Part shown: piece by piece, positions 24,624 to 45,324 of the stretch
Numbering within the stretch: the stretch's first letter is position 1
Layout: every line of letters begins with the position of its first letter
IMG/VR virus record: IMGVR_UViG_3300008117_004657
Location: 1-64,000 of that record
Strand: one strand, 5' to 3'
DNA: 64,000 bases
DNA from: a virus
Notes under the pieces: generated by a model
Seen by the model: only the letters and a program-made list of their open reading frames with translations
Database searches by the model: none
What the model was told of the DNA's origin: nothing
Program-made: the position numbers and the translations under genes

Positions 24624-24625
24624 AA

Positions 24626-27077: not shown

Positions 27078-27094
27078 TAATAATTAATTTATAC

Positions 27095-27952
27095 TTATGA
27101 ATTATAAAAAATTAAACTTTGTGGAGCAAATAAAACTTTATTTCCAATTTTTGGTGATCCCCACATGCCATTAAATTCATTATTTTGATCGTCTACAGGT
27201 ATAAAATTTAATTTACTTGTTAAAGAACTCAATACTTTAACCCTCTGTTTATAAACACTTTCAATATGAATTAAATCGATATTGGATAATTGACCCGTAT
27301 GATACAATAATTTCATATCAAACCCTTTTACATCATCAAATTCAATATTATCATACAATTTATAAAGATCACCTTCTTTACTTAACCAAATTTTCTTTTC
27401 AACTAATTGATCAAATAATTCTCTATAATCATCCAGTGTAGCAAATAGATACTCATCATTATAGATAAAATTTTTGTAATAATCAAATAACGAATCACTC
27501 TTTTCAAATATAAAAAAAGCCGTTTCTTCTAATAAATCAAATTCTTTATTTTGTTGGTGTTTTTTACAATGATTATATACAAAATTTAAAAAATTATCTT
27601 TAAGTTCTATATTTCTATCATTCCAAAGTTTTCTATGAAACATAGTTTTTGAACTAGCATTAAGTTGAAATGCAAATTCGTTTAGTTCAAAAAAACCTTC
27701 CATACCTTTATGTACAATCATTTCAACAAACTCAACATCAAAATGAGGAATGTTAAAGTGTAAAGGATAATAAAATTTATTTTCATTATATTCTTTTGTT
27801 GTAGTATCTACTCTACGTTTAACTCTAAAATCTGGATAGCGTTCAAGTAATAACTTTTCTCTAGACAAACGAATGTTTCTCAAATAGTCACTTATTTGAG
27901 TATATTCTGAACCATTCAAATATTCTAAATTGTTTACATCATAAAGTTTCAT
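27095..27952 (-). CDS. Hypothetical protein
   Basis: 285-aa ORF coupled to its neighbours; no motif recognised. Confidence 0.6.
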   Translation of the reverse strand: MKLYDVNNLEYLNGSEYTQISDYLRNIRLSREKLLLERYPDFRVKRRVDTTTKEYNENKFYYPLHFNIPHFDVEFVEMIVHKGMEGFFELNEFAFQLNASSKTMFHRKLWNDRNIELKDNFLNFVYNHCKKHQQNKEFDLLEETAFFIFEKSDSLFDYYKNFIYNDEYLFATLDDYRELFDQLVEKKIWLSKEGDLYKLYDNIEFDDVKGFDMKLLYHTGQLSNIDLIHIESVYKQRVKVLSSLTSKLNFIPVDDQNNEFNGMWGSPKIGNKVLFAPQSLIFYNS

Positions 27953-28874
27953 TTAATTCAACTTCAAAGCTAATTATGTTAAATTGACATTTTTTTTGTT
28001 GGCATTTTATAACTTTACCATTTAATAAATTTTTAGAAGGATCAAGAAAAATATTTCCTATTGGTTTTTGTTCATTTTCAAAACAACACATAGTAACATC
28101 TCCATTTCTATCTACCTCATAAGCTCGAACATTACAGTTTTTACCAGTAAATAATAATTTAGTTTCTTTATACATTTCATACTTACCTTTATTGTAAGGT
28201 AAAATAGAACCATCGATTTTATATATTACATCAAATTTATTTAAATATTTTTCAAATTTAGAATTCATATTAACTAATTGATTAATAGTTTCTAGAAGAT
28301 TACTGTTATCTAGAACCAGAGGTTGCAATTTCATATTTTTTAAAGAATCAAATACTTCCTCAATATAATCTATATCATTTAAATAATCGTTATCGGTAAA
28401 AAAGAATAAAGAAGAATATTTAAAATTATCATCAACCCATTTTACATTATTTTTAAATTGAACTTTATTTAAATTTTCAGTATGTAAAGTGCATGTTATT
28501 TTTACTTTATCTCCAAACTTTTTTAATAAATTTAGTCTTTTTTTAAAAAAAGTTGGTTTATGATCGGCATGAGTTATGATTGAAAATTTATGATCAGGAT
28601 GTGCATTAGTGTACAAATAATTTATTATTTCTTCAAAATTTTTATGTAAAAGAGGTTCTCCTCCTATCAATTCGATAATAATTTTTTTATTGTTCATAGA
28701 CATTATTTTTTCAAGTCCTCTGAGAACACCACTAATATCATTATTATAACGAACACCATTGGTGTCCGCAACATTGTAACAGTATGAACAACTCTTATCG
28801 CACAAAGTAAATAATTCAAATTCTACTAGAACATGATCTCCTATAAATTCATTATGTGTTTTTATATGTTTCAT
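27939..28874 (-). CDS. Radical SAM enzyme with Twitch-like C-terminus
   Basis: CDKSCSYC, GGEP, C...YEVDRNGDVTMCC...CQQKKC. Confidence 0.9.
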   Translation of the reverse strand: MKHIKTHNEFIGDHVLVEFELFTLCDKSCSYCYNVADTNGVRYNNDISGVLRGLEKIMSMNNKKIIIELIGGEPLLHKNFEEIINYLYTNAHPDHKFSIITHADHKPTFFKKRLNLLKKFGDKVKITCTLHTENLNKVQFKNNVKWVDDNFKYSSLFFFTDNDYLNDIDYIEEVFDSLKNMKLQPLVLDNSNLLETINQLVNMNSKFEKYLNKFDVIYKIDGSILPYNKGKYEMYKETKLLFTGKNCNVRAYEVDRNGDVTMCCFENEQKPIGNIFLDPSKNLLNGKVIKCQQKKCQFNIISFEVELNETL

Positions 28875-28885
28875 TTTGAAAAGTA

Positions 28886-29701
28886 TTATGACAAAGATTT
28901 TGCCTCTATACTTCGTTGAACAAATCTCATCAATTCATTGTAATATTGATCATCAGTCATTTCTCGACCAGTAATTTTAAAACTTTGTACTCCAACTTGT
29001 TTTAACTTTTTCATGGCATTAGGCATCAGATCCATACACTCGTATTTACTGTCTATATCTGGGTTAAATTTTGGCAACCAACATTCTTCTATTTCTCGAC
29101 TATAAGGTCTGCCTGCGGTATTTTCATCAGCGATAGCTTTAAAGTGTGCATCATAGTGTTTACATCCATAAACACAAGTATCATTTAACATAACTTCCCA
29201 TTTAGTTCTATCCAATTCGATAGTTCTAGGGTCAAATACATGCTCAAATCTAGGAACTATCCAATCATAATTTTTTTCGAGAACTTTAAAAAACTGAATA
29301 TCTTCATCCTGTAATGGAATATTCAGTTGTCCCATTCCAGTTATACTATAAATTAATTCATAATCTGGATAATTTGAACGAACATATTTTCTCAGATCAT
29401 CATTAACTATTATTAGTGCATTACCTTTTCGATGAAATTTTTCTAATAAATGATTACCAACTTCATCATTCAAATCTATCGTATGATTACTTAATGTTAA
29501 AGCTATACTTATACCTTTACTATAATAAAAATTCATTAGATTTTCATTATAGTAAACATCTCTGTTAATTCTACCACCATTCCATTTACATTTATTTACT
29601 CCATCATATACTAATATTTTTGTATTGTCTACAATTCTATTAGAAATAAATTTTATTATAGGAATGGTTTTACTGAAAGCACCAGCTATTAGGTATCTCA
29701 T
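28886..29701 (-). CDS. U32-family-like Fe-S protein
   Basis: EVMLNDTCVYGC...H, further Cys residues, and GVQSFKITGRE (compare U32 SLKIEGR). Confidence 0.7.
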   Translation of the reverse strand: MRYLIAGAFSKTIPIIKFISNRIVDNTKILVYDGVNKCKWNGGRINRDVYYNENLMNFYYSKGISIALTLSNHTIDLNDEVGNHLLEKFHRKGNALIIVNDDLRKYVRSNYPDYELIYSITGMGQLNIPLQDEDIQFFKVLEKNYDWIVPRFEHVFDPRTIELDRTKWEVMLNDTCVYGCKHYDAHFKAIADENTAGRPYSREIEECWLPKFNPDIDSKYECMDLMPNAMKKLKQVGVQSFKITGREMTDDQYYNELMRFVQRSIEAKSLS

Positions 29702-29709
29702 ATTCTATT

Positions 29710-30468
29710 CTACATTAAAAAACATTTAGGTTTTGGGCAAACGCCATCGGTTTTTATTCTATAACAACAGTTATATAAATCTAAGTTTGGCGCATAGAGA
29801 AAATATTTATCTTTATACAAACAAGGTTTCCCAAAAGTATTAAAGTTTGAATCTAACCACAATTCACTGCGTTGACGACCAAACCTATCGATATCCTCAA
29901 AATTAATTATCTTTTTATAAATCGAATTGTTTTTCAATGATTGATATTGTGAAAGTAAAGTATCACTATAACCATCTCCAAAGTCGGTAACTGGAGTCAA
30001 AAATAAATTGTCATGTGAAAAAGATTTTTTTATAGCAAAATAATAATCTATAGCTTCTTTTCCTGTGTACATAACATCTATGATTTTAATATTGACTTCA
30101 GTTTCTTTTAATCCGTCAACTATATCTTTTATTGATGTTTCTGTTGGATGAATACTAATATTAACTTTAAAAGGTTCTTTTATTTGTTCGATTATTTTTC
30201 GACTGTAATTACTAAAGTTTGTTTGTATAACAAAAGGTATACTAAATTCATTAAAAGTTTTTATTATAAATTCTATTTTAGGATGAACAAATGGTTCCCC
30301 ACCGAACACAAAAATCTCTACATTAGGATATTTTTCTCCTAAAGTTTTTATAAAACTTTTTATTTTTTCTTCATCCAATTCTGGTCTTATACTGGGGTCC
30401 AAATTCGTACAATATACGCATTTATAATTACACTTAAGTGTAATTTCCCATTCAACAATTTTATTCAT
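29710..30468 (-). CDS. Radical SAM enzyme with Twitch-like C-terminus
   Basis: CNYKCVYC, FGGEPF, QTN, SIHP, GKPC...NCC...CPKPKC. Confidence 0.9.
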   Translation of the reverse strand: MNKIVEWEITLKCNYKCVYCTNLDPSIRPELDEEKIKSFIKTLGEKYPNVEIFVFGGEPFVHPKIEFIIKTFNEFSIPFVIQTNFSNYSRKIIEQIKEPFKVNISIHPTETSIKDIVDGLKETEVNIKIIDVMYTGKEAIDYYFAIKKSFSHDNLFLTPVTDFGDGYSDTLLSQYQSLKNNSIYKKIINFEDIDRFGRQRSELWLDSNFNTFGKPCLYKDKYFLYAPNLDLYNCCYRIKTDGVCPKPKCFLM

Positions 30469-31363
30469 TTTTTATTTTTAATTGTTTTAAAAGACCATCA
30501 CAATTACAAGCTTTATGTGGACAAATCATAGGAATAGTTTTCGTAATATTTTTAAAAAAATCTCTATTACTTAAAAGATTCACATTATCAGTTTTAGGCA
30601 TACAAAATTTTACTACGTTGCCTTTAACATCAATTTCATAATTATTATTGTAACAACTCCATCCCTTGAAGTTTGTCATCTTATCTCTAAAGATAATATA
30701 GTCATTAAAAAAATCGTCATCATATTTGAGTTCTTTTTCATAAGACTCTAAAAAAGAAAAATATTCCCAAAAATCTTTTCTATAATTAAACAATTTTGTA
30801 ATACTGTTGCCGTATAAAAAATGTGGATGCACTTTTAAATTAGGTATTTTTTCTAAAGTTTCAAACATGTTTTTTATTTTTGGCCAAAGTTTTTTATCAT
30901 GATGTAACATTACATTAACTTTACACTTATAACCTCTATTCAACATGTGATTTATATTATTTAAAAATCTATTTTCGTCAGTACAATCAGCTGGGTGATA
31001 ACTAAACAAAAATGCCAGTCTATCATAATCTGGGTGAGTTGTCAAATCTTTTTCAGCATTAGTAACAACATATACCCAATTAAATTTTTCCATTTTACTA
31101 ATTGAATCTAAAATATAATAGTAATGTGGACCTAGAGTTGGTTCACCACCTAATAATCCAAGATTAAAATTTAGACTGCTTCGATTTAGAGCGTCCAAAA
31201 CTGCATCTATTACTGTTTTGCTCGATAACTTACCCCATTCTTTACCATATTCATTTCTAGCGTAACAATAAGAACATTTAAGTTGACAGATAGTTAAACT
31301 GTCCCAATGAATATTAATGTGATCTGGATCTTGATCTTTATGATGTTGTATTTTATACTTCAT
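30461..31363 (-). CDS. Radical SAM enzyme with Twitch-like C-terminus
   Basis: CQLKCSYC, LGGEPT, VTN, SYHP, GWSC...KFC...CPHKACNCDG. Confidence 0.9.
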   Translation of the reverse strand: MKYKIQHHKDQDPDHINIHWDSLTICQLKCSYCYARNEYGKEWGKLSSKTVIDAVLDALNRSSLNFNLGLLGGEPTLGPHYYYILDSISKMEKFNWVYVVTNAEKDLTTHPDYDRLAFLFSYHPADCTDENRFLNNINHMLNRGYKCKVNVMLHHDKKLWPKIKNMFETLEKIPNLKVHPHFLYGNSITKLFNYRKDFWEYFSFLESYEKELKYDDDFFNDYIIFRDKMTNFKGWSCYNNNYEIDVKGNVVKFCMPKTDNVNLLSNRDFFKNITKTIPMICPHKACNCDGLLKQLKIKNE

Positions 31364-32024
31364 ATTTTTTTAAAAAATCTAAAGACGAGGTTATGTTTAT
31401 ATCTTTTTTTGTGTCTGGAAAAGATATATTATCATTCCCATCTTTTGTCTGATAAAAAAACACTTTACCAGTAGTTCTAAATGATTTAGAGTTACCTGAA
31501 GCGTGATAAACTAATCTGATATCATTATGTATATTGTTGTCTTTACCAAATAAAAAATCACCTATAACTTCTTTATTAAATATAAATTGTCCTAATTGTA
31601 GATGTTCAAGATTCAATTTATTTAAAAAATCAATTTTGTTGTTAATATTTTCGTCTTTAAACATATTTACTATTTCTAATAAATTGTCAGGTTTGTAAGT
31701 TGGATAGTAATTTCCTGCTATTATATCAGAATCAAATTCTTGATTAAAAAAATCATTTCTCAAATAATCATCATCTTCCAAAAAATAGATATATTTACCT
31801 TTTGATTGTAAAAATAAAAATTCGTATATACTTGATAAGTTATCAAATTTTTTATAAAAATATTTGACATTAGGATTTAAAATTTCTTCAATATCACAAC
31901 TATCATTATTTACAATAATTTCTGTTTGGGGTGTTATTTGAGATAAAACCGATTTTATACATCTATCGAATAAAGTGGGTCTTTTGTGGGTTAATAATAA
32001 AATAGAAAGTTCAACATTTAACAT
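31353..32024 (-). CDS. Glycosyltransferase family 2 (GT-A)
   Basis: SILLLTHKRP..F.RCIKSVLSQ, EIIVNND, GKYIYFLEDDD. Confidence 0.85.
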   Translation of the reverse strand: MLNVELSILLLTHKRPTLFDRCIKSVLSQITPQTEIIVNNDSCDIEEILNPNVKYFYKKFDNLSSIYEFLFLQSKGKYIYFLEDDDYLRNDFFNQEFDSDIIAGNYYPTYKPDNLLEIVNMFKDENINNKIDFLNKLNLEHLQLGQFIFNKEVIGDFLFGKDNNIHNDIRLVYHASGNSKSFRTTGKVFFYQTKDGNDNISFPDTKKDINITSSLDFLKKYEV

Positions 32025-33013
32025 ACAATTTTTATCTTCTCACCCAAGATAGGATTAAGATTGACCTTTCCTTTTAGTTCATTTTCTACACCATCACAAA
32101 CATAAAAATATTTACATTTTAAACATTCTTCAGTTTTAAAACAACTATAAATTCTCAAACGATCTGCTTCAGAAAAACACTGATCCACTTTTTGTTCATG
32201 TGTGTAAGAAATTTTAGTATTTAAAGTTTCATTATAAACTGCTTTATTCCAATCCTTCATATCATATATGTGATGATAATGATTTTTTATATACTTTTCT
32301 TTTGATGGCATGAAGCAGTAAGGAAAATATCTAGCGTTTACTTCAACAAAATCTTTTAATTGATCAATATAATCAGATACATGTGAACAAATAATTTCAT
32401 AATTTATAGGTTGAAAATCTTTATTGTCTCTCCAATAATTTAAAGCTATAAAATTTACCTGTGAAGGGCTTAAAGACTTTATAAATGAGGTATCTATTTT
32501 ATCAAAGTTTTCATGATATATTGTTGTGTTTAACCTAACTTCGATATTTAATTTGTGTGAGTTTTCGACAGCTTTAATTAAATTATTAAAAGCTCCTTTT
32601 TTACCTACAATTTTGTCATGAATATTTTCATCCGTACAATGCAAACTAAAAAGTATTTCTCTTAATCCTAAATCATAACTTTTTCTTATAAAATCTTCAT
32701 CACTAAATTTTCCTCCATGACTAAGGCAACTGATTCTATCGAATTTATTTCGACAGTAATTTAATATATTAAACCAGTTTGGTTCAACGCTACTTTCACC
32801 ACCACTTAGATCGATTTCTCTTATGCCATAATCAAGTAAATAATCTATTCTTTTGTATATTTTTTCAAGTTCATCTCTTTCAGTCAAACTATTTTTATAG
32901 TAACAAAATTCACATTTATAATTACAAAGTTTACCTGTGTCCAATTTAGCCCTACTATTAATAGGTCTATTATAATCAACAGTAACTTTATTAACACTTA
33001 ATTTGTTCATCAA
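32018..33013 (-). CDS. Radical SAM enzyme with C-terminal CxxCx5C cluster
   Basis: CNYKCEFC, SGGES, FPYCF, K.EECLKCKYFYVCDG. Confidence 0.9.
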   Translation of the reverse strand: MMNKLSVNKVTVDYNRPINSRAKLDTGKLCNYKCEFCYYKNSLTERDELEKIYKRIDYLLDYGIREIDLSGGESSVEPNWFNILNYCRNKFDRISCLSHGGKFSDEDFIRKSYDLGLREILFSLHCTDENIHDKIVGKKGAFNNLIKAVENSHKLNIEVRLNTTIYHENFDKIDTSFIKSLSPSQVNFIALNYWRDNKDFQPINYEIICSHVSDYIDQLKDFVEVNARYFPYCFMPSKEKYIKNHYHHIYDMKDWNKAVYNETLNTKISYTHEQKVDQCFSEADRLRIYSCFKTEECLKCKYFYVCDGVENELKGKVNLNPILGEKIKIVC

Positions 33014-33869
33014 TGTACTTTATTAAAAGGTCATCTTTTGTTAGGGACGTGTTTTGAATACCATCTTTTTTCCTAACTTCCAGTGCCTTATCATAATAAT
33101 CTACATCATAAATAATTTCTTTATCATAATACATACACTCCAAAATAAATCTACTAGAACAATCTTTTTTACCTGGCAGTTTGGTATAAACATATGTAGA
33201 AAACTTGTTCCACATATCAGGCACAGGAACTTTATATGTATTAAAATTTTGGTATAATTCTGGTTTATTCGTAAAAATTATACTATCTTTAATTGAATAT
33301 TTATTGATGACTTCAGTTAAATCTTCTTGTGGTAAGAATCGACTAACATCAGTTAAATAAAACATGGAAGAGTTTTCAATTTTTCCATCTATAGTTTTGA
33401 ATTTAGAATATAAAATTTTCTTTTTATAATCTATAACATTTAGTCCTTCTGGTATATCATCATATATCTCAAAATCTTGAAATAGATGGCTTGAAAATTT
33501 TTTATTTGAATAATAACTGAAATCTTTCTCATGACATCTTAAAAGAAAAAAGTTGTCACAATAAATTTCAGAATTATTAAACTTGGAATATCCGTCAACT
33601 ATTAATAAATTTTTCGTTAATAATAGTTTTGGATAAGGATGATAGACTAAATTTTCAATGGTTAAATCATGGTATTTCGATTTTAAAGCTATATTGAATT
33701 CTTCAATAGTCGTACCATCAGACAATAATATACAAGGATTTAAATTTGTCCAATTTTTTATAGCCCAATAGTATTCAATCATTTCAAATAAATGGCCACA
33801 AATACCAAATTTAAAGTTATATGAAGTGGTTATTACCAAATCATAACTTCTCAAATTAATTAAAGACAC
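32991..33869 (-). CDS. Hypothetical protein, possibly GT-B glycosyltransferase-like
   Basis: N-terminal GICGH..E and C-terminal DCSSRFILECMYYDKEII resemble the GT-B donor-binding E-x7-E region. Confidence 0.4.
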   Translation of the reverse strand: MSLINLRSYDLVITTSYNFKFGICGHLFEMIEYYWAIKNWTNLNPCILLSDGTTIEEFNIALKSKYHDLTIENLVYHPYPKLLLTKNLLIVDGYSKFNNSEIYCDNFFLLRCHEKDFSYYSNKKFSSHLFQDFEIYDDIPEGLNVIDYKKKILYSKFKTIDGKIENSSMFYLTDVSRFLPQEDLTEVINKYSIKDSIIFTNKPELYQNFNTYKVPVPDMWNKFSTYVYTKLPGKKDCSSRFILECMYYDKEIIYDVDYYDKALEVRKKDGIQNTSLTKDDLLIKYIDEQIKC

Positions 33870-33875
33870 TTAAAA

Positions 33876-34979
33876 TTATTTCAAAATAATTTGATCTATA
33901 CTAAGTGGATTGTATCCTAGATACTCAAAAAAGTTTTTTGGAACTTGATTTACAACATCTTGTTTTAAATTGTTGTCTAAAATATTTTTAACATATTCAG
34001 ATTTTAGTACATCAAAAAATAAATTTAAATTTTGATTCAAGTCAAAATTTGAAAAAATTTCTTGAAAATTGTCGATAGAGAAATTTTCTATAGATGAAGA
34101 TTCGCATTTAAATAATTCAAATTCGTTTATAATACTATTATAATTTGATAATTGATTTCTCAAAAAAATTTCTTTGTCGTCAAGTAAAAATTTTTCGTTT
34201 TTTAAATAATCTTCATATTTAATATTGATTACATTTGGTAAAGATTTTACTAATACCATATTAAAGATAGAAAAAATAAAATTTTTAAACTTATTATTTT
34301 TTTTAATATAATCTTCTTCATACCTTATTGCATCAAAATTATAATCTAAATTATTTATGAAAGAGCAAACACTAGGATTTCTTATAATATTTAAAACTCT
34401 AACATTTTCTTCTCCTAGTTCTTCTTTAACTTTTTGTATAAAAGATGGTGAAAATATTCCTGTCCATATATTATATGAATTTTTTTCTTTAAAAGAATTT
34501 AAGATATTCTGATACTCTAACGCATTGGATATTAAAATTTTTTTAATATCTTCATTAGAATAAATATCTTTATACCTAGAGTTTGATTGTAGATTTGTTA
34601 TTTCATCTTCCATTAAAACAAAAGATTCAAGATTGTAAAAAAAACTATCAAGATTGGTAGTTATCCAAGAAACTTCAATATGGTTTTCATTAAAAATTTT
34701 ATCTGTTAGTTCAATATTAAATTCTTCTATCCTTTGTATTAAAGAATAATTTTTTTGTTTTAATTCATCATCTTCAACATTCAGTAAACCATAATTTATT
34801 TTTCCTAAAGATTCATTATTACAATATACATTTTTTTGTTCAGAATCAAAAATTATAAAATCATCGTTTCTATATTTTACGGTATATTCATCAAATTCCC
34901 AAACTTTTTCGGCGTCAAGAATACTTCTAGATATGTATTTTAGATTTACAGTTTTAGGACCATTTATTAAGGTTATCAA
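33876..34979 (-). CDS. Hypothetical protein, degenerate sulfotransferase/P-loop-like fold
   Basis: N-terminal LINGPKT, LNIIRNPS, INIKYEDY and a C-terminal YLGY. Confidence 0.5.
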   Translation of the reverse strand: MITLINGPKTVNLKYISRSILDAEKVWEFDEYTVKYRNDDFIIFDSEQKNVYCNNESLGKINYGLLNVEDDELKQKNYSLIQRIEEFNIELTDKIFNENHIEVSWITTNLDSFFYNLESFVLMEDEITNLQSNSRYKDIYSNEDIKKILISNALEYQNILNSFKEKNSYNIWTGIFSPSFIQKVKEELGEENVRVLNIIRNPSVCSFINNLDYNFDAIRYEEDYIKKNNKFKNFIFSIFNMVLVKSLPNVINIKYEDYLKNEKFLLDDKEIFLRNQLSNYNSIINEFELFKCESSSIENFSIDNFQEIFSNFDLNQNLNLFFDVLKSEYVKNILDNNLKQDVVNQVPKNFFEYLGYNPLSIDQIILK

Positions 34980-34981
34980 AA

Positions 34982-35401
34982 TTATCTCCTTAAGTAAGAC
35001 TCAATAATTTCATTAACACTTTTCTCATCATTTAAATCTGGTAAAACTTTTAATTTATCAATTATATTATAAAATTCGTCTTTTTTTTCTTGTAATTGTT
35101 TAATTGAATCCATAAGGTTGATATATTTTTCCAACTTATTAATAAGTTCAACATCGCCTGTTTCTATAATTTTGATATAAACTTCTTCTCTAAGTTCTTC
35201 GGTTATGATGTATCCCTTTGAAGCCAGTTCATTGTTAATAGTCATAAAACTGACGAAATCCAATAATTTAAACGTCAAAAGTTCATCACCAAAAATTCCT
35301 CTAGCTTTTGTTTTACATGCTAGAGCAGCTTTACCCGCATAAGTATTCGCGTCTATACCTTCAATTTCAACTCGTTTTTCTTCCATAAAATTTATCTCCA
35401 C
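34982..35401 (-). CDS. Hypothetical helical protein immediately downstream of the Cys-rich fibre gene
   Basis: 139-aa ORF; no motif recognised. Confidence 0.6.
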   Translation of the reverse strand: MEINFMEEKRVEIEGIDANTYAGKAALACKTKARGIFGDELLTFKLLDFVSFMTINNELASKGYIITEELREEVYIKIIETGDVELINKLEKYINLMDSIKQLQEKKDEFYNIIDKLKVLPDLNDEKSVNEIIESYLRR

Positions 35402-35410
35402 TATTAATAA

Positions 35411-36337
35411 TTATTTAATCTCAAAAGGAAGTTCAGAATAATTAACCATATAAAAACCATTTTTGGTCATATAAACAGCATTAGAATATTTTGTTTTTAG
35501 AAGTTCTTGGGCCATAACACCGACAAAAGTCTCATTACTCCAAATATAAGAAAAACTGTAAACATTAATTCCAAAAATATTCTTCAAATATTTAATATTC
35601 CTTTTCAATCGTCTGTCACTATAATTACAATTGCATGTGCAAGAATAATTGCAGTTACATGTACAATAATTACAGTTACATGTACAATAATTACAGTTAC
35701 ATAAACATACTGCGCCAGCATCTTTTACTTTTTTAATTAAAGCATTAATGTCTGTCGCACTTATTCTAGTTGATAGTTGTGCGTTATTAGTGGTAGATAT
35801 ACCGGCAAATCCAGTAACAAAACCTGCTACCGAAATTGCAGGACCTCGGTCTACTTGTGGATTAGTAGTATTTGGTCCACCCCAGAGTTCAACACCACCA
35901 AAAGCTACAAATTGAGTGCCGTTAGGAAAAATTCGTTGCGTTAATTGAGAACCCGAACTTACAACACTTTCTCCTCCGGATGACGATGTAGTTATGAGAC
36001 CAAATGTCCTAGCTCCCGTTCTCTCTATCGAGGCTTTTAAATTATTTATTTGGGACGATGTTATGGAAGTGCCGGAACTGACAGTTGATCCTGACGGTGC
36101 AGAAAGTCCTCGCCTAGTACATTCAGACGCATAAGCGGTTCTAATAGCATTTATTGATGCAGCCCCAATTAACGATCCTGCTGTAACATCAGTCAAAGAA
36201 TAAGTTGTAGCAACTGCAGCGCCATTATAAACGTTTGCTTTTACTATGTAGGTTCCACTAGCATCGTTGTCAGGGTTGTAACCCTTTGCATGACCAGAGG
36301 AAGCAGGAGGTCTTTTTTTGGAAGATGAATACGGCAT
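35411..36337 (-). CDS. Cys-repeat fibre-like protein with C-terminal peptidase S74-type intramolecular chaperone; putative radical SAM substrate
   Basis: Ser/Thr/Gly-rich body, then CLCNCNYCTCNCNYCTCNCNYSCTCNCNY, then SDRRLKRNI...GINVYSF.Y...VGVMAQEL...GFYMVNYSEL. Confidence 0.85.
   Translation of the reverse strand: MPYSSSKKRPPASSGHAKGYNPDNDASGTYIVKANVYNGAAVATTYSLTDVTAGSLIGAASINAIRTAYASECTRRGLSAPSGSTVSSGTSITSSQINNLKASIERTGARTFGLITTSSSGGESVVSSGSQLTQRIFPNGTQFVAFGGVELWGGPNTTNPQVDRGPAISVAGFVTGFAGISTTNNAQLSTRISATDINALIKKVKDAGAVCLCNCNYCTCNCNYCTCNCNYSCTCNCNYSDRRLKRNIKYLKNIFGINVYSFSYIWSNETFVGVMAQELLKTKYSNAVYMTKNGFYMVNYSELPFEIK
35621..35707 (-). repeat. Four 21-nt/7-aa CxCNCNY coding repeats (12 Cys in 29 aa)
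   Basis: cagttacatgtacaataatta occurs as exact tandem copies, with synonymously diverged flanking units. Confidence 0.95.
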
Positions 36338-36338
36338 A

Positions 36339-36719
36339 TTAAATCTCTTTTGATAAGAAGTTTAAATTATCTTTAACTTTATTTTCTTCTAAAAATTTTT
36401 CATAATCATCAACATCAACAGTAGATGATAAAAAGTCCATAGTTTCTTTATCGGGTTCTTTATCTGACAAAGAATCTTCTGAAGATTCTTTAATTATATA
36501 CATCACCATTTCTTCTAAAGAAAAACCTAAAATGTTAGAAACAAGATTTATTTGATCGGAAATATCTAAAGTTCCTTTAAAGTCCTCTTTAGAAATAGTT
36601 TCCAGAACATTTATTGATAGACCTAATCCATCCAATAATACTCTACCCGCAACATTATCTTCTTCAGATATCTCACCCATAAGTCTAATTATTTCTTCTA
36701 TTTTTTCAGTGGTTTTCAT
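36339..36719 (-). CDS. Acidic hypothetical protein
   Basis: 126-aa D/E-rich ORF coupled between a radical SAM gene and the Cys-rich gene. Confidence 0.6.
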   Translation of the reverse strand: MKTTEKIEEIIRLMGEISEEDNVAGRVLLDGLGLSINVLETISKEDFKGTLDISDQINLVSNILGFSLEEMVMYIIKESSEDSLSDKEPDKETMDFLSSTVDVDDYEKFLEENKVKDNLNFLSKEI

Positions 36720-37579
36720 ACCAATTCCTTTTCTTTAAAATCTCGAAATTTTGGGGAACTCTCAATATTGAAATGTGTAGTAACATTTCCTTCGTCTGTA
36801 AAATACGTTTTAATTTCTTTTCTAATACTACATCCGTCACAAATATCACAAAATAGAGAACATACAGGCGACTGAATCTCATTATTTATCCAACTTAACC
36901 TGAGATTTTCTTTCATAGAATCTAAAAGTTTTAAGTCTTTCTCACTCAAAGTATCCCAGGCGACAGAGGTTATAAGTCTCTCCGGCCTAAAAGTTTTGAT
37001 TAGTTTAGTTATATCTTCGGAAGCTCGCCTTATATTCAATTTATGAATGGTATATCTTATTCGAAACCTGAAATTATTTTCCAATAACTTCTTAAATATC
37101 TTTACCATAAATGGTGTTGATTCCATACCATTGTGAAAAACTCTGTCTTTATTACCAACTCCATCAAAACTCACATCTATAGATAATAACTTCTTCTTAT
37201 AAAAAAAATTATTTTTAGTTACGTCTATGAAATCTTGGCTTAAATATTTAATACCATTTGTTGTCATATTAAAATGAACATTCTTCTTTTTACTATAGGC
37301 ATAGTCCATAGCAAAACAAACATTTTCCCATTCTAATGTTGGCTCTCCACCAAACAATACTATAAGAGTTTGCTGACTCGGATCCTCACGTTCTAAAATT
37401 TTATCAATACTTTTTACAATATCTTCTTTACTTAAAATTTGCGGCGGTCTTCCTGGTAAATCTTCATAGCAATACGTGCAAGCTAAGTTGCATTTATTGG
37501 TAAAATATAATACATTTACACCAGATCCAGAAACTATTGGTTTATTAGGATCTTGTATGTAAAATTGTTCTACATTCAT
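36716..37579 (-). CDS. Radical SAM enzyme (anSME/peptide-maturase-like core, short Cys-rich tail)
   Basis: CNLACTYCYE, LFGGEPTL, MTTNG, VSFDG, CSLFCDICDGC. Confidence 0.9.
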   Translation of the reverse strand: MNVEQFYIQDPNKPIVSGSGVNVLYFTNKCNLACTYCYEDLPGRPPQILSKEDIVKSIDKILEREDPSQQTLIVLFGGEPTLEWENVCFAMDYAYSKKKNVHFNMTTNGIKYLSQDFIDVTKNNFFYKKKLLSIDVSFDGVGNKDRVFHNGMESTPFMVKIFKKLLENNFRFRIRYTIHKLNIRRASEDITKLIKTFRPERLITSVAWDTLSEKDLKLLDSMKENLRLSWINNEIQSPVCSLFCDICDGCSIRKEIKTYFTDEGNVTTHFNIESSPKFRDFKEKELV

Positions 37580-37875
37580 TGTATTATCATTTTATGAGAA
37601 TTTTTATATCTATTTTCTTTTGGACGTTTTTTAGCTTCTTCAATTATGTGTCGCATGTTGTCCAAAAATTTGATATAATCTAATTTGTAATCAAATAAAT
37701 GTCCGGCTTCATTATATCCAACATATTTACTATCAACTTTAGCTTTACCTTTTCTAGCTTCTTCAATCTGCACTGATAACTCATCAACAGGAATTACTTT
37801 GTTTGATGCATGTTCAACAGGTTGCATCTCAACCTTTATTGGTATAGATAATAAACTTTTAAAATTTTTTTTCAT
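37576..37875 (-). CDS. Hypothetical protein
   Basis: 99-aa ORF overlapping both neighbours by 1-4 nt. Confidence 0.6.
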   Translation of the reverse strand: MKKNFKSLLSIPIKVEMQPVEHASNKVIPVDELSVQIEEARKGKAKVDSKYVGYNEAGHLFDYKLDYIKFLDNMRHIIEEAKKRPKENRYKNSHKMIIQ

Positions 37876-38723
37876 TAAATTTCCTTAGGATACATCATAA
37901 GTCCACCTTCACAAATTTCTTTCGGACAAATAACTTTTTTTGTAATATCTTTTAAAGATAACGGCATAATTTCATTAGTGCAAACATTTTTAACCAAATT
38001 ATCCAATTCTATTTGAAAAGATTCTGGCACACATTTATAATCTCTAAAAGAATTTTTTTTCTCATATAATAATTTTAAATCTGTTGTTCTTTCTTCCGAA
38101 CCATCATCATATAAAACATTTATATCTATCATATCTTCAGCATTAGAAGCTTCTGTAAAAAAATCTTGATCTAAGTTATTTGTGTAATATGGAGTATCAA
38201 CTAAAAAATTTAATTTAAATTTAATATTATTAGATTTACAGTTATCAATAATATTTAAAATATAGTTTTTATACTCTGGCATCATACTTATATGAACTTC
38301 ACAATTTAGATTTTTACACTTTTTTAAAAAATCCTCTTTGTGATATTCTGGATGAAAAGATGCATAATACTTAACTTTTGAAAAACTTTTTATACTTTTA
38401 TAAAAAGTTTCCGATCTAGTCAAGTTGGTAAAAAAATAAATTTTTACCAAATTTTTAATTTCATTTAATCCTTCCAGTATTTCTTCAATATTTGGATGTA
38501 ATGTTGGTTCACCACCAGTTAAACAAATCTCAAAAGGTTTAGAAATAGTTTTTAATCTACTTATTATTAACTTGTAACTTTGTGCAATCTGAGTCGTATC
38601 ATTGTAATCATAACTTAAATTTTCCTTTACATTACAGTATGAACACTTCAAATTACACCAATTCAATATATGCCAGTTAATTCTAAGAATTTTATCTTGA
38701 CTGGTGCAAGAAATAATTTTCAT
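37875..38723 (-). CDS. Radical SAM enzyme with Twitch-like C-terminus
   Basis: CNLKCSYC, TGGEPTLHP, FTN, SFHP, YKC...NVC...CPKEIC. Confidence 0.9.
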   Translation of the reverse strand: MKIISCTSQDKILRINWHILNWCNLKCSYCNVKENLSYDYNDTTQIAQSYKLIISRLKTISKPFEICLTGGEPTLHPNIEEILEGLNEIKNLVKIYFFTNLTRSETFYKSIKSFSKVKYYASFHPEYHKEDFLKKCKNLNCEVHISMMPEYKNYILNIIDNCKSNNIKFKLNFLVDTPYYTNNLDQDFFTEASNAEDMIDINVLYDDGSEERTTDLKLLYEKKNSFRDYKCVPESFQIELDNLVKNVCTNEIMPLSLKDITKKVICPKEICEGGLMMYPKEI

Positions 38724-38724
38724 A

Positions 38725-39849
38725 TTAATTCCTACACTCTACGCCTTCATTTTCAACACCAACATTTTCAATATAATGTAATACTAAATCTTGAAAAACT
38801 GGAACATCCTTACACTCATCAACAACTCTTAAACCCTGTTCATAATATATGTGAAATAATTCACAAATACTATCCAATGGTTTATTGTCATTCATAATTT
38901 GAGAATAAGTGCATCCAGTATTACATACTTGTTTTAAATCGCAAGGTTCACATTTATCAAAACTTTTAGGATTAAATATATCTTGATAATATTTAAAATT
39001 ATATTGTTCGTCCATCTTCATAATTTTTTTAGATGCAAATCTGGCGCAAGGATAAAATTCACCAGAACTCATCAAAACTCCACCATTGGTTCCTGCAAAA
39101 CATCCAAATGATCTTTTTCCTTTTACTAATCCATATAGTGTGTCCAAAATAGCTAGTCTGAGAAAGCCAACTGAACAAGCTTTACCTGATTTTAGTTTTT
39201 CTATCCAAAAATCCGCCAATCTTTCACATTCATATCTAAACTGTTTGATATCTTCTACAGTCCAAACATCATCTCGAACTATACTAAAATCGGGATGATC
39301 TATACCCCAATCTAGTAAGAATTGGAAATTCTCCGTCATATCTTTGGTATTACCTGGCCATATCATAACTTTACAACCGTTTGTTAAATCTTTTATGATT
39401 TCTTTCTTGTACTCATACATTGAAAGAATACCATCAAATAAATCTCCAGTTTCTGGATTAGTATTTTCTAAAAGTGGTAATAAAGGTCTAGTTTCATTTG
39501 AACTCATACCATCAAAAGACCAAGAAACACCGACACCATTTTCTTTTAAATAATGAGCTTTATTTTCATCAATCATCGTAAGATTTGTGATGATATTAAT
39601 ACCTTTACATTTCTTATCCGATTTCAAATAAGGAACGGCGTGAGTTATAAGATCCCAATTTAATAGTGGTTCACCACCAAAAAAACTTACATGATAATCC
39701 CTATCTCCCGATCTTTGCATCAAGTTGGGCAAATCTTTCATACCTTGATCGAAAACCTCTTTCGTCATCCAAGTTGGCCTATTTGCTACATAACAATAAG
39801 GACAACCTAGATTACATTTTTCAGTAACACTTACCTCTAATGTAAACAT
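38725..39849 (-). CDS. Radical SAM/SPASM peptide-maturase-like enzyme
   Basis: CNLGCPYC, FFGGEPLLNW, SFDG, and SPASM CFAG...YPCARF...CEPCDLKQVCNTGC...C. Confidence 0.93.
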   Translation of the reverse strand: MFTLEVSVTEKCNLGCPYCYVANRPTWMTKEVFDQGMKDLPNLMQRSGDRDYHVSFFGGEPLLNWDLITHAVPYLKSDKKCKGINIITNLTMIDENKAHYLKENGVGVSWSFDGMSSNETRPLLPLLENTNPETGDLFDGILSMYEYKKEIIKDLTNGCKVMIWPGNTKDMTENFQFLLDWGIDHPDFSIVRDDVWTVEDIKQFRYECERLADFWIEKLKSGKACSVGFLRLAILDTLYGLVKGKRSFGCFAGTNGGVLMSSGEFYPCARFASKKIMKMDEQYNFKYYQDIFNPKSFDKCEPCDLKQVCNTGCTYSQIMNDNKPLDSICELFHIYYEQGLRVVDECKDVPVFQDLVLHYIENVGVENEGVECRN

Positions 39850-39859
39850 TCTTTTATCC

Positions 39860-40966
39860 TTAAACTGTGCATTGTTCAGCCTCGATTTTAATCGTAGGCT
39901 TTTTATAACTCTTTAGTGCTGTTCTTAGAGCATGATGTACTATCTCATTCGTTTTGAATACCTTACATACCTGCCAATTAGCTGTATGATCACTCCATTT
40001 TTCTAAATAAGTTTCTTTTTCAGATTTCTCATAAGTCGCAGCATTACACTTCATACAAAACTGACTATCGCAACTCATACAGTCTAGTGGTTGATTTTTC
40101 AATGCGTCTTTATACATCTGAGATTTTTCTTCAATCAACTGATCTAAATCTGGAACTTTAAAAATATTACCGAGTTTATGTGAATGAGATTCTTTATACA
40201 TGCATCCGTGACAAGGACTTAAATCCCCATTCAAGTCCACACTCACATAATTTATACCTGCAGCACATAGAGCTCTAGACTGTTGAAACCATCCAAATTT
40301 TTCAGGAGGTAATTTGTTATCATAAATGTGTTTAGCAATTTTTTTCAATCCATCCTTCAAAACTTCTAATCTAGGCATGAATTCTTCTTCATTCAACTGA
40401 CTGTATAAGTCTGGTGTTGGAAAATAATTATTATCCATTTCTATTACATCTAGAAATGCTTCATAAATTAAATGGAAATTATCGGATGTCAAAACAGATT
40501 TCAATGAAACATTTAGCCCAGCTTGTTTAGCTGCAATATAGTTTGCTTTAACTAAGGCTGATGATGGAGTACCAGACTTAGTTACTCTTGCGATATCATT
40601 TACTGGTTTTCCATCATATGAAACTTGTAACTTTAGTCTACCTGGAATTTCATTATGAATTCTAACCAAATCTTTTAAATATCTTTTTAAATATGTTCCA
40701 TTTGTATAGAAGAAAAAAGAAAACCCAGGATCGTGTTTAAACTTCTCAATAACACCTTTACAAAAATCCCAATTAACAAACGGTTCGCCACCCCAAAAAT
40801 AAACATCCTTTTTAGGATCAGAAATTTTAGCCATAAATTCTTCAACATTATCTAATGTCAAAGAAGTATTTTCTTCAAACTCAGTAGATAGACCACACTC
40901 AAAACCTTCGGAACAATATGTGCAAGCTAAATTGCAAATACTTGTTACGTTTATATCTACTACCAT
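39860..40966 (-). CDS. Radical SAM/SPASM peptide-maturase-like enzyme
   Basis: CNLACTYC, FWGGEPF, YTNG, SYDG, and SPASM CAAG...PCHGC...CMSCDSQFCMKC...C; AAGGAG SD. Confidence 0.93.
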   Translation of the reverse strand: MVVDINVTSICNLACTYCSEGFECGLSTEFEENTSLTLDNVEEFMAKISDPKKDVYFWGGEPFVNWDFCKGVIEKFKHDPGFSFFFYTNGTYLKRYLKDLVRIHNEIPGRLKLQVSYDGKPVNDIARVTKSGTPSSALVKANYIAAKQAGLNVSLKSVLTSDNFHLIYEAFLDVIEMDNNYFPTPDLYSQLNEEEFMPRLEVLKDGLKKIAKHIYDNKLPPEKFGWFQQSRALCAAGINYVSVDLNGDLSPCHGCMYKESHSHKLGNIFKVPDLDQLIEEKSQMYKDALKNQPLDCMSCDSQFCMKCNAATYEKSEKETYLEKWSDHTANWQVCKVFKTNEIVHHALRTALKSYKKPTIKIEAEQCTV

Positions 40967-41021
40967 TTTTTCTCCTTTTATTTTAAATCAAAGACGCACT
41001 AGTATATAGTAGTTGATAAAC

Positions 41022-41759
41022 TCAATCAACATTTCTGTAGTATTCGTTCAGTTCTAAAACTTTTTTAAGTAATTCTACATCATAATTTTTCACCAAACAC
41101 TCGGTATCTTTTGGTAAGCAAGGACCTCCAAATCCTCTTTTTCCGTCAGGTCCAGGAACTTTAAAATGATTGGATCCCATCCAAGGATGTTTAGAAAGTA
41201 TTTCGATAGCTTCCTCATAGTTTACCTCCATCTTTTTAGCTACATCATACATTGAATTCATAAAAATAACTTTTGTTGCATAAAAAGAATTCATTGAGTA
41301 TTTTATAAAAGAAGCAGTATTGATATCCGTTATGAATGTATTACTCATATCTACAGTAGAATACTTTCTATAAATTTCTAATGCTTGTTCAGATTTATTA
41401 CCCGATAAAATCGTTAGAGGAGGATTTACAAAATCTTCCTTTGAAGTGGACCTTGATAAAAATTCTGGATTATATACTACGTCATATTGTTTTAAATATT
41501 GTGGTAACACAGTTGATTTGACTATGACAACTCCTTTATAATTCATTCGTCGTATTTCATCAAGTACAGAAATCAACAAAGAATAATTAGTGTTATCTGT
41601 GGGAGTAGGAACACAAACGAAGATAGCCTCAGGATTTAATAAACAAAGGCCTTTCACCGTTACGTGATTATATTTCGGATCACAAACAAAAACTTTAGTT
41701 TTGGAAAAGCCGTATTCAACGGCTTGTCCAACCATTCCATAACCAATAATTCCAATCAT
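41022..41759 (-). CDS. ugd: UDP-glucose/GDP-mannose 6-dehydrogenase family (short form)
   Basis: GIIGYGMVG, FVCVPTP, KSTV.P, YNPEFL, K...N, GFGGPCLPKD; lacks the C-terminal UDP-binding domain. Confidence 0.85.
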   Translation of the reverse strand: MIGIIGYGMVGQAVEYGFSKTKVFVCDPKYNHVTVKGLCLLNPEAIFVCVPTPTDNTNYSLLISVLDEIRRMNYKGVVIVKSTVLPQYLKQYDVVYNPEFLSRSTSKEDFVNPPLTILSGNKSEQALEIYRKYSTVDMSNTFITDINTASFIKYSMNSFYATKVIFMNSMYDVAKKMEVNYEEAIEILSKHPWMGSNHFKVPGPDGKRGFGGPCLPKDTECLVKNYDVELLKKVLELNEYYRNVD

Positions 41760-41762
41760 AAT

Positions 41763-44700
41763 TTACATGATAGCTACTTCTATCTTTCCTTCTTCTTCAG
41801 TGTTTTTATCTTCTAAACAAATTAATCTTAATGGTAATTTGTTACCATCAGATACTTTAGCTACTCCTGGTACATCAGACATTTCAAGTAAATCACCTTT
41901 TTTACATGTGCCTAAAATTCTAACAGGCAATCTACCTTTGAGTCCAACAACTATACCACCTTCTAATCCATCATTCATTAAGAAAGCAGGTTTTTCCGAA
42001 ACAACTCCTATTATAACATGTAATTTATCTTTTGTCGCGGCTGTAACTTCTTTATTGCCGCCAATCATCATAATCGTTCCATAATCATAAGATTGGTCTG
42101 GTAAATAACATTCGGCTAAGTCCGCAGAATAGTATGCTGATGTTGCGATGCCTCGGAAGAAATCAGCTACAATATCCTTTTCACAGAATATACCACCTTC
42201 AACATATAGAGAAGCACCAGCGGCAGGACTAGTAGAATTATCTTGACCAGTTGTAGCTTGAGTGCTATTTCTAATTCTAACCCTACCATAAAGATCGGAA
42301 GCACCATAATTAGTTAAATTAGCAGAAGTTGCTTGGCCAGCGACGCCAGTAACAATCGTTCCTCCAGAAGTAACATTAGTTGTACTACCAGCAGTTGTAG
42401 CGCTACTAGCAGATGTAGCACTACCAGCACTAGTTGCATATCCAGCATCACCGGTAATATTCATGGGATAAGTTCTAGCGCCACCTGTGTCAGTTCTTGA
42501 AACTCTATTTGTAGGTAATAAACCGGCAGCATCAACTTGAATATATCCAGTTAAATTGGGAGCAGAAATTTCAGACCAACTAAATCCAGTACCCGTCCAA
42601 TTTAAAAAACGATTTAAATTTGCTGGAGGAGCAACAATGAAAGCTGTAGTATCTTGTTCTGATTGATATACAATTCTACTTGCAGCACCGCCAGTAATAT
42701 TATTCGCTCTATCAGAAACAAAACCTAAAGTTGTAAAATCTGCTGGATCTGAAGTTGCATGTGTATATTGCCATCTGTCAATAGTTTCATTATAACGGAA
42801 TATAGCATTTGGAGAAACACCCCTATCAACTTCAATTGTAGCACTTAAAGACGGACTCTGATTTTGGTTTTGATTACCATTAAATACAAAAGTTCCACCT
42901 TGTAGGAGTGCTGTGCCTCCATTAAACTTAATGTTGCCACTTTCCAATTTACCAGTAACATTTATATTACCATTTATGGTTTGAATATCACTACCACCCG
43001 TTCTATAAACAGCATTATTTGCATTACTGAACGCAGCATTGGCATGCCTAAATGCCACATCTAAATGTACGTTTGCTGTATTTGCAAATAAAAATGCCGC
43101 ATTAGCGTGAATAAATGCTGGAACAACATTAGCTAAAGCTTGAGATGCAGATTCTTGTGCAACAGCAGCAGCAGCTGCAGCAGTATTGGCAGCTCCAAAA
43201 GCTCCATTCGCATAAGAACTAGCACTATTTGCACTTCCAAATGCTGAGTTAGCATATCCACCAGAAATTACACCACCACTCAATGCAGCAGCATTAGCCG
43301 CAGCAAAAGCAGAATTAGCATACACGCCTGCACTATTTGCACTTCCAAATGCTGAGTTAGCATATCCACCAGAAATTACACCACCCTGCAAGGCAGCAAG
43401 ATTCGCTGCAGCATAAGCGCCATTAGCATAATTTGATGCACTCGTTATATTAATTGTAAACAGAGCCGAGTTAGCATTAGCAGTATTAGACACTACGTTT
43501 GCCCAATTAAATGCAGCATTAGCATGAGTGTAACCCGAGTTGGCATATCTACCAGATGTTTGTGCGACTGAGTGCGCGGTGTTTACCGCTAAAGGCGTAG
43601 CTATATTAGATGTACTTAAATTTGAAACTTCAGAATCTAAGAAACTTGCATCCAAAATTCCATAAAGTTCACTATAGGTATTACCTTTTGAGATTTTCCA
43701 TTGGTCATCAGTTTCAACCCATCTAATAATCGCATCATCACCAACAGGCCTTTCATTTCTAAAAACTGCATCAGCGTTTGTTGGTGTTCTCTTATTTAAA
43801 ATTATCTCACTTGTCTCATATTCAATGTCACCTAAAGCTGTCCAAGTTCCCTCAACAGTTAAATTACTTGAAATGTAAGCTGTATTGAGTGTAGTTTTTC
43901 CATCAACGATTAAAGATTCATATTGGCTGCCCGGAGCATAAATCCTTAATTGCGATCCACTTTGCATCCATAGATTAGAAGAAACATTTACCCAAGCAGC
44001 ATTAATTGTGGAAACTTCAACATTATTTGTAATAATATTATTAGCGGTAATTCTATGAGTTGAAGTTAAATTATATGATGTTAATATGTTAATTGAAGAT
44101 GTATTGATTGAAGCTACATTTATACTTGAACTATTTGAAACTAGATTTACTACATTACCATTTAATATGGTAGCGGTATTGATCGAAGATACATTGATTG
44201 AAGCTAAATTTGATACTAGAGTTACTACATTACCAACTAATGTGGTTGACGCATTTACTGTAGCAACATTAATTGATGATGAATTCGACACTAGAGTTAC
44301 TACATTACCATTTAATATGGTAGCGGTATTGATCGAAGATACATTCGAACTAAAATTAACAATATTACCAGAAATATTGGCGACCAAATACCTTGTGGAA
44401 ACGGAATTAGAGGTATGCGAATTCGAAGAAAGATAGTAAGAATTGCCTGTTACATTTTCTAAAATACCTATTCTAGCAAAAGCGAGATCATCTAAAACAT
44501 CTATTCTAGCAAACGAAGCATATAAATTTGCAGTGCTTACGTTAGTAGAAAAAGTATCTGTGGAGTATATTGTATTAGATTTTATGGATCCATTATTAGC
44601 ATAAGCTACATTTCCTGTACCACTTAATCTTAGAGTGCCGGTAGATATTGTTAAATTGTTCGCTACAGTTACACTACCATTTGCAATATAATTATTCGAA

Positions 44701-45074: not shown

Positions 45075-45083
45075 TTCTGATTA

Positions 45084-45323: not shown

Positions 45324-45324
45324 A

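Follow-up and report, generated by a model that had tools for sequence, protein, structure and literature searches.

A small gene in a 64,000-nucleotide stretch of viral DNA (positions 1 to 64,000 of the IMG/VR record IMGVR_UViG_3300008117_004657, called here the window) encodes a 308-residue protein in which four C-x-C-N-C-N-Y units run directly into a Peptidase_S74 domain, and a link of this Cys gene to a trio of radical S-adenosylmethionine (SAM) enzymes encoded beside it is strongly supported by conserved gene order. On balance, we favour the reading that its product is a trimeric fibre-type protein whose Cys tract is stapled by the enzyme trio, while the S74 domain sets the register of the three chains and then cuts itself off.

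The gene order was followed in two directions. In the forward direction, the proteins of the island around the Cys gene were compared with the open reading frames (ORFs) in 43 viral loci that the Cys protein had retrieved (numbered with the prefix L). After dropping the S74-only locus L042, the remaining 42 loci formed 28 dereplicated groups, 25 of which carry at least one orthologue of a core radical SAM enzyme (39860, 38725 or 36716, each named by its first coordinate) within 10 kb of the Cys gene. All three enzyme queries matched 19 of the 28 groups, a count in which cross-hits between paralogues are possible, yet separate ORFs were assigned per query. The order 39860-like gene, 38725-like gene, small ORF, 36716-like gene, Cys gene or genes and 34982-like helper gene recurs down to 20-40% identity, orthologues of 39860 adjoin the Cys gene in most loci, and 36716 as a query finds an ORF in 38 of the 43 loci, with E values from 1e-147 to about 1e-4, the weakest being likely cross-hits to radical SAM paralogues. 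The smallest loci hold little besides the trio, the Cys gene and the helper (L026-29, L031, L128), or the trio and Cys genes without an adjacent helper (L012, L016), and therefore the other five radical SAM genes and the sugar genes of the window make up a separate accessory set.

In the reverse direction, a profile of the 38725 family was used to fetch 78 loci; many of those with at least 31% identity are contigs already counted in the first set, and the two counts are therefore not independent. Among the 35 loci at or above 31% identity, 28 contain an ORF with Cys units; L075 has a divergent CTCNVD-type homologue, L052 a remnant from which the repeat and middle part are deleted, L061, L067 and L077 are cut next to the match, and L073 and L074 are without a Cys-unit ORF. 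Below 30% identity, Cys repeats occur in only one of 43 loci (L080). The involvement of radical SAM enzymes that the initial annotation had supposed is borne out. In the L052 remnant (12638-13094), the Cys gene is reduced to an 80-residue N-terminal piece and a 73-residue S74 part in another frame, a state explained either by deletion or by collapse of the assembly at the repeat. Among 185,579 species genomes scanned, only four cellular loci turned up, all of them on contigs of metagenome-assembled genomes and three of them with the trio; the Cys-protein family is essentially viral.

The tract that the enzymes would act upon was described correctly in every detail of sequence and position by the initial annotation, as read from the printed codons, and the 308-residue ORF is the sole one in the window with tandem CxCxC units. 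Its homologues number 560 at E<=1e-3 in a size-limited search, and 1669 among 50% representatives in a full scan, 213 of the latter at E<=1e-10. In an alignment of 23 homologues with 36-77% identity to the window protein (alignment A1), every Cys, Asn and Tyr column of the tract is invariant, as is an E-x-x-R-R motif near residue 72, with A194, N198 and I201 nearly so, while the N-terminus and residues 110-183 are hypervariable. Unit statistics were drawn from the 217 of 256 homologues with at least three CxCxCxx units, the other 39, mostly S74-only matches, being left out. These statistics show that the tract did not arise by chance: among the 1000 units of these proteins, T occupies position 2 in 77.5%, N or D position 4 (85.5% and 10.9%), N position 6 (96.4%) and Y position 7 (94.2%); a protein carries from 3 to 18 units, with a mode of 4 (167 of the 217), and the units join directly at 522 junctions and through one small residue at 253. 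Given that 245 units from the 28 dereplicated loci comprise 148 distinct 21-base sequences, in which TGT and TGC, AAT and AAC, TAT and TAC and the four Thr codons are freely interchanged, it is the peptide and not the DNA repeat that is under selection. In a wider locus set, position 4 is N in 127 units, D in 97 and Q in 21, and what is universal in each unit is the three Cys together with Asn or Asp (or Gln) at positions 4 and 6. Subfamilies with 12-14 repeats of the type CPCNC[ND]F retain all three core enzymes, and therefore the Thr and Tyr hydroxyls are not required.

The number of units also varies between near-identical phages, given that P0001 (301 residues, 98% identical, on 10 contigs) has exactly one unit fewer than the window protein; in a further sample, a DNA contig spans the window repeat unchanged. 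A 534-residue family member, gp145, with annotated 21-bp repeats, is encoded by Campylobacter phages CPt10 and CP21, and CP220 has a homologue too. Such long forms (534-835 residues; L125 3481-5985, and L019/L020, which are CPt10/CP21 gp145) have a large C-terminal region after the units, with scattered C-x-C-N motifs and without S74.

The closest solved relative of all three core enzymes is CteB (5WGG/5WHY), with E values against 5WGG of 2.6e-11 for 39860, 1.2e-17 for 38725 and 4.7e-9 for 36716. An NCBIfam scan, which covered 38725 and 36716, matched the PapB model with 130.8 bits for 38725 (model positions 5-320 of 330) and 89.2 bits for 36716, against a cut-off of 340, and further matches included the SCIFF maturase (87 against 425), the QhpD type (82 against 453), the anaerobic sulfatase-maturating enzymes (anSME) and the sactipeptide maturases. 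The 38725 family has as invariant Cys C12, C16 and C19 plus seven in the C-terminal half (C250, C268, C300, C303, C309, C313 and C329), including the CX2CX5CX3C arrangement C300-x2-C303-x5-C309-x3-C313; this seven-Cys SPASM half is found in two of the three core enzymes, 36716 having a short Cys cluster only. Judged by these matches, the core enzymes are kin to thioether maturases (PapB, CteB/SCIFF and QhpD type) without being members of these families. The initial annotation had offered three fates for the tract, namely thioether cross-links, cross-links involving Tyr, and a metal-thiolate or iron-sulfur rod; by enzyme kinship, thioether links are most likely, and links through the Tyr hydroxyl are disfavoured because the CPCNC[ND]F subfamilies keep the trio.

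The mechanism that we suggest would have two steps. In the first, the three enzymes would modify the Cys tract before or during folding, most likely by forming non-alpha (ranthionine-type) thioethers from Cys to the Asn or Asp three residues downstream, with the staples C1-x-x-N4 and C3-x-x-N6 in each unit, and the stapled tract would be a covalent, oxidation-proof rod. We favour such staples because each unit holds two C-x-x-N/D motifs, which is the arrangement that CrpC cross-links in CrpA. In the second step, S74 would align the three chains and cut between Tyr239 and Ser240, leaving the modified tract as the free C-terminal tip.

CrpA and CrpC are the closest precedent. According to the available text of a 2026 paper (PMC13692751), the SPASM radical SAM enzyme CrpC of Methanococcus voltae introduces ranthionine links at the C-X-X-Q/D motifs of CrpA, a Cys-repeat protein. 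The part of that paper accessible to us describes, as in the window, a Cys-repeat protein of more than 100 residues and not a short peptide, encoded beside a SPASM radical SAM enzyme, with repeats that are C-terminal to a conserved N-terminal part and a Cys whose amide or acid acceptor comes three residues later (C-X-X-Q/D there and C-x-x-N/D in the window). In contrast, CrpA/CrpC is there an archaeal, cellular system with 17-residue repeats and one enzyme that has a RiPP recognition element (RRE; RiPP, ribosomally synthesised and post-translationally modified peptide), while here there are three RRE-less enzymes, units of 7 or 8 residues, a phage fibre context and S74; the likeness described here is one of layout. 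The ranthipeptide/SCIFF systems PapB/PapA (NF047865) and CteB/CteA (5WGG/5WHY) likewise combine the seven-Cys SPASM half with a Cys-rich substrate from a neighbouring gene, and differ from the present case in that here there is no RRE, the substrate has 200-540 residues with an invariant 'core' and a variable rest, and the enzymes are three paralogues.

The same substrate might instead undergo other chemistry: sactionine links at the alpha-carbon, Cys-aromatic or carbon-carbon links to Tyr or Phe, epimerisation of alternate residues, or conversion of Cys to formylglycine. This would account for the gene linkage equally well, and the reaction cannot be read from homology since the cut-off of no characterised family is reached; anSME and sactipeptide maturases are among the enzyme matches, position 7 of the unit is always aromatic (Y or F), and three enzymes with three Cys per unit suggest more than one reaction. 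We nevertheless regard it as unlikely, because the best full-length matches are the ranthipeptide/SCIFF enzymes PapB and CteB, and because conservation of Asn/Asp at positions 4 and 6 matches that of the Cys, which fits the role of an acceptor. The motif upon which anSME acts, C/S-x-P/A-x-R, is absent.

A somewhat less probable explanation is that the tract is left unmodified and forms a metal-thiolate, iron-sulfur or disulfide rod, with a trimeric beta-structure whose 36 Cys hold metal ions or clusters along the threefold axis or are joined in interchain disulfides, the radical SAM enzymes serving, for example, sugar chemistry. CxCxC runs are classic metal ligands, and the His-x-His iron sites at the tip of the T4 long tail fibre offer a loose parallel. 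The island is rich in sugar and other enzymes, the core enzymes are without an RRE, and a few loci lack radical SAM genes. In the available text of PMC13692751, the CrpA authors themselves suspect metal binding by their modified protein. Four points speak against such a rod: the minimal loci named above hold little but the trio, the Cys gene and mostly the helper; orthologues of 38725 occur almost only beside Cys-unit genes; conservation of Asn/Asp equals that of Cys; and free thiolates would presumably be unstable on a particle in oxic lake water.

The Cys gene product is probably a small, trimeric fibre-type protein from the host-recognition region of a freshwater T4-like phage. The source record has 72,977 bases (CheckV completeness 43%), the window has 32.6% G+C, and near-identical DNA comes, by the run labels, from freshwater and lake metagenomes; megablast of positions 30000-42000 gave no match. 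The window holds T4-type baseplate genes (gp6-like, gp8-like and a baseplate wedge), a DUF4815 giant protein and other large fibre-like ORFs, and the Cys gene lies between the gp6/gp8-like genes and the fibre-like ones. The protein consists of a variable N-terminus, three short I-x-A-x-x-IN-x-L helices (59-75, 94-104 and 194-208 in the AlphaFold2 monomer), the four units and S74, with PHROG 26958 spanning residues 190-240. The whole monomer has no Foldseek match in the PDB at E<=0.001, the alignment A1 profile finds nothing meaningful among PDB sequences (best E 0.61), and a trimer prediction of three copies of residues 180-308 from alignment A1 (score 0.01, mark 0.42) is evidence neither way. 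In cultured phages, tblastn with the 308-residue protein matched the S74 part only (Brucella and Microcystis phages, 20% coverage), the low-complexity filter hiding the repeat. Parts of the Cys gene are matched at 100% identity by contigs from three freshwater metatranscriptome runs, which belong to three studies, a weak indication because such libraries can contain DNA; these contigs hold the gene only in part, none spans the repeat, and they give neither level nor strand. When 31000-46000 was scanned for promoters and terminators, promoter-like sites were about as frequent as chance predicts (87, with 89 expected). The whole 64 kb holds a single copy of the T4 late-promoter word TATAAATA, where shuffles lead one to expect 15.3 and 0 of 100 had as few, which is a marked depletion for a T4-like phage.

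In many loci the Cys gene comes directly after a large fibre-like gene. The large fibre-like protein of the window at 41763-45074 (minus strand), without a Pfam hit, shares a segment with large ORFs that in many distant loci, among them L013 3733-9768, L062 1645-6375 and L126 4594-9582, come directly before the cassette or the Cys gene; from this common segment, it may be that the fibre and the small Cys protein act jointly.

Identification of the S74 domain by the initial annotation stands, given that PF13884 matches residues 240-288 over profile positions 1-57 of 58 (E 8.8e-7, 29.6 bits against a gathering cut-off of 22) and that S240, D241, R243, L244 and K245 are invariant in the 23 homologues. 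The absence of a spacer that it had described is also correct, Ser240 following Tyr239 directly and continuing into DRRLK. The SD.R.K site is single in the window and in the whole 72,977-base record, and in 176 of the 217 proteins the last unit runs straight into SDxx[LVIM]K. AlphaFold2 models residues 241-308 with a confidence score (pLDDT) of about 82-94, and S74/ICA entries are the sole structural matches on model residues 228-307, all weak: MyRF ICA 7DC3 with Z 3.6 (root-mean-square deviation 4.2, 61 residues aligned), 3GUD with Z 3.2 and 3GW6 with Z 3.0. In T5 pb1, as the available text of PMC4690869 has it, the bond between Thr1263 and Ser1264 is cut with Lys1269 as base, and the Ser leaves with the chaperone. 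The spacing of Ser240 and Lys245 equals that of Ser1264 and Lys1269, five residues, and on this analogy ...CNCNY239 would be the end of the mature chain. Homologues that finish at ...CNCNY or ...CNCNYS do exist in nature, their stop codons being true ones that lie inside contigs. Both points agree with the earlier prediction that the tract becomes the extreme C-terminus, for which no separate protease would be needed at that end. In common with S74 of T5 pb1 and K1F endosialidase, as presented in the accessible part of PMC4690869, the domain here has the SDxRxK site and stands at the very end of a fibre-type protein; unlike there, the cleavage site is preceded by a 29-residue Cys tract and not by a large beta-helix or receptor-binding domain, and the domain is also split or missing within the family.

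Within the family, S74 is a modular element. Of the 217 proteins, 138 end in a full S74, 55 in a 12-residue stub (S-D-x-x-L-K-x-x-I-x-Y-[MLFI], which keeps the Ser and the Lys), 16 at ...CNCNY(S) and 8 otherwise. Eight of the 11 stub-type loci have the remainder of S74, with its G-x-x-A-Q-[DE] core and coiled-coil end, in an ORF of its own of 90-105 residues. Locus L024 has four stub paralogues and one separate S74 ORF, which may serve up to four paralogues, and L007 has three paralogues, two with a stub and one with a full S74. The enzyme trio is kept beside Cys proteins without any S74 in L025, L032-39, L054, L062-64 and L078. The suggestion that S74 acts as a self-removing RiPP follower peptide fails on this point, since the same trio accompanies Cys proteins that lack S74 or have only the stub; S74 is an interchangeable folding accessory outside the modification logic, fused, split or absent in relatives. 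The L025/L032-type loci are the closest relatives whose Cys protein stops at ...CNCNY(S), and in place of S74 they have an ORF of about 150 residues with a hydrophobic segment, unrelated to S74 (L032 about 10510-10960, L025 about 10490-10920).

It is very improbable that the protein is a released phage RiPP and no part of the virion, with the N-terminal 210 residues as a long leader, the Cys tract as core of a small peptide that is secreted or stays in the cell, and S74 trimming the C-terminus. The leader-core-follower layout does resemble that of RiPP precursors, and tandem paralogues, four in L024 and three in L007, recall multi-precursor RiPP clusters. In RiPP families, however, the pattern is the reverse of the one seen here, where the 'core' is invariant and the N-terminal and middle parts are hypervariable; the minimal cassette has neither a conserved protease nor a conserved exporter, and the gene lies among baseplate and fibre genes. 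S74 is otherwise known, in the available text of PMC4690869, from trimeric fibres and spikes. The idea of the Cys protein as an iron-sulfur scaffold or electron carrier for the radical SAM enzymes was rejected in view of its S74 domain, fibre-like hypervariable middle and tandem paralogues.

Table 1. Positions of the Cys gene, its parts and the surrounding cassette in the window, and of separate S74 ORFs in related loci.
Feature	Position	Strand	Basis or remark
Cys-heptad fibre-type protein, whole gene, 308 residues	35411..36337	-	ORF list; stop codon 35411-35413
Cys tract CLCNCNY CTCNCNY CTCNCNY S CTCNCNY, residues 211-239, 12 Cys	35621..35707	-	printed codons; candidate radical SAM substrate, predicted mature C-terminus
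Predicted scissile bond Tyr239-Ser240, codons TAT AGT	35618..35623	-	analogy with T5 pb1
Peptidase_S74 intramolecular chaperone domain, residues 240-308; Ser240, Lys245 (35603-35605)	35414..35620	-	Pfam PF13884
Conserved helix I-x-A-[ST]-x-IN-x-LI-x-x-V-x-x-AG, residues 194-208, immediately preceding the tract	35714..35758	-	third of three similar helices
Two other similar helices, residues 59-75 and 94-104	36113-36163; 36026-36058	-	AlphaFold2 monomer
Core radical SAM enzyme 1, SPASM-type, 368 residues	39860..40966	-	Pfam Radical_SAM 56 bits; SPASM 21.1 bits, just below the 21.5 cut-off
Core radical SAM/SPASM enzyme 2, 374 residues	38725..39849	-	Pfam Radical_SAM
Core radical SAM enzyme 3, 287 residues, short C-terminal Cys cluster	36716..37579	-	Pfam Radical_SAM
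Fourth radical SAM gene between core enzymes, accessory	37875..38723	-	Pfam Radical_SAM; in this position in close relatives only, placement varies among loci
99-residue protein inside cassette	37576..37875	-	no Pfam, NCBIfam or PHROG match; homologues in 21 of 43 loci
126-residue acidic protein directly upstream of Cys gene	36339..36719	-	no family match; homologues in 18 of 43 loci, close relatives only
139-residue conserved helper directly downstream of Cys gene	34982..35401	-	PHROG 25260, E 4e-15; homologues in 31 of 43 loci, including distant ones
Separate S74 ORF directly after last stub gene (6 of 8)	L007 11011-11283; L017 10220-10540; L018 10156-10461; L024 10813-11091; L040 10237-10545; L043 10158-10442		
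Separate S74 ORF elsewhere in locus (2 of 8)	L022 5505-5795; L031 5794-6081		

The cassette lies within an island (21778-41759) with eight radical SAM genes, a family 2 glycosyltransferase (GT2), a UDP-glucose dehydrogenase, a transketolase-like gene and a tryptophan-halogenase-like gene. The last of these (25114-26406, minus strand; PF04820, E 6e-63) stands among radical SAM and sugar genes of the host-recognition island. A second block (27939-33013, minus strand) comprises radical SAM genes at 27939, 29710, 30461 and 32018, a 271-residue gene at 28886 and the GT2 gene at 31353, with the transketolase-like gene at 26337; it is separate from the core trio and conserved in closer T4-like relatives only. 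The 34982 helper is modelled by AlphaFold2 as an all-helical bundle (pLDDT 85), for which Foldseek gave no match at E<=0.001 and VIA-align only generic helical proteins (best Z 7.5), with no RRE-like fold, and ESM Atlas look-ups of the 99-residue and 139-residue proteins returned no usable match.

Several points have to be set against the stapling of the tract by the trio. Regarding the enzymes, all radical SAM scores are far under the NCBIfam equivalog cut-offs, which places the enzymes in no characterised family; all three begin at the CxxxCxxC motif and align with CteB only from its residue 100-102 onward, and therefore they are without an N-terminal RRE domain, the recognition domain of CteB; and fold and Atlas searches recognised no stand-alone RRE among the small proteins of the cassette. 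Regarding the chemistry, there are three Cys to two Asn/Asp in each unit, which leaves Cys5 unexplained by the C-x-x-N/D scheme, the need for three enzymes is likewise unexplained by the staples, and, given the sugar enzymes, the glycosyltransferase and the halogenase-like gene, some of the island radical SAM enzymes surely act on other substrates. Regarding the linkage, no radical SAM gene was found in the flanks of L013/14, L015 and L022 (3 of the 28 groups, with L013/14 and L022 cut by the contig end) or in L125, and in CPt10 the nearest one is 2.3 kb downstream of gp145, with three genes between. Finally, the structure of the tract is not confidently modelled, with a pLDDT below 50 over residues 210-237 of the monomer.

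Parts of this system have been seen before. In the accessible portions of the papers on Campylobacter group II phages CP220 and CPt10 (PMC2853527), whose CPt10 gp145, with its annotated 21-bp intragenic repeat, is a family member, and on pelagimyophage host-recognition clusters (PMC7029224), radical SAM genes are noted and either taken as metabolic or left unexplained, the repeat is taken as a DNA feature, and the two are not linked. A cyanophage paper (PMC12801897), in its available text, lists a radical SAM 'maturase' merely as an 'antibiotic synthesis gene'. Our search, to which subscription journals and supplements were closed, found no paper linking a Cys-repeat phage protein to radical SAM enzymes and none describing the repeat motif CTCNCNY.

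We know of no phage particle protein that receives RiPP-type modifications. For whole proteins, cross-linking by radical SAM enzymes is a very new finding, made in an archaeon, as the available text on CrpA/CrpC reports (PMC13692751, 2026). As a wider and more tentative proposal, for which we would give somewhat less than even chances, many phages of unrelated hosts, which would include those of freshwater and marine T4-like phages, Campylobacter and gut Firmicutes, staple a small trimeric fibre tip with an RRE-less radical SAM trio that ties a thioether knot in each C-x-C-N-C-N-Y unit, which would make this the first RiPP-type cross-linked virion protein; S74 would then be an exchangeable module, fused, divided or lost in the course of evolution. 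The series of S74 forms, from fused through split to absent, provides a natural experiment on the way in which an intramolecular chaperone might turn into an intermolecular one. If stapling by the trio is true, peptide stapling would gain a small set of three enzymes that need no leader and act on a simple repeated substrate; the puzzling radical SAM gene sets of Campylobacter phages (group II) and of marine T4-like phages, with the pelagimyophage clusters, and freshwater ones would have a function; and there would be a new way to harden a fibre tip against oxidation and proteolysis.

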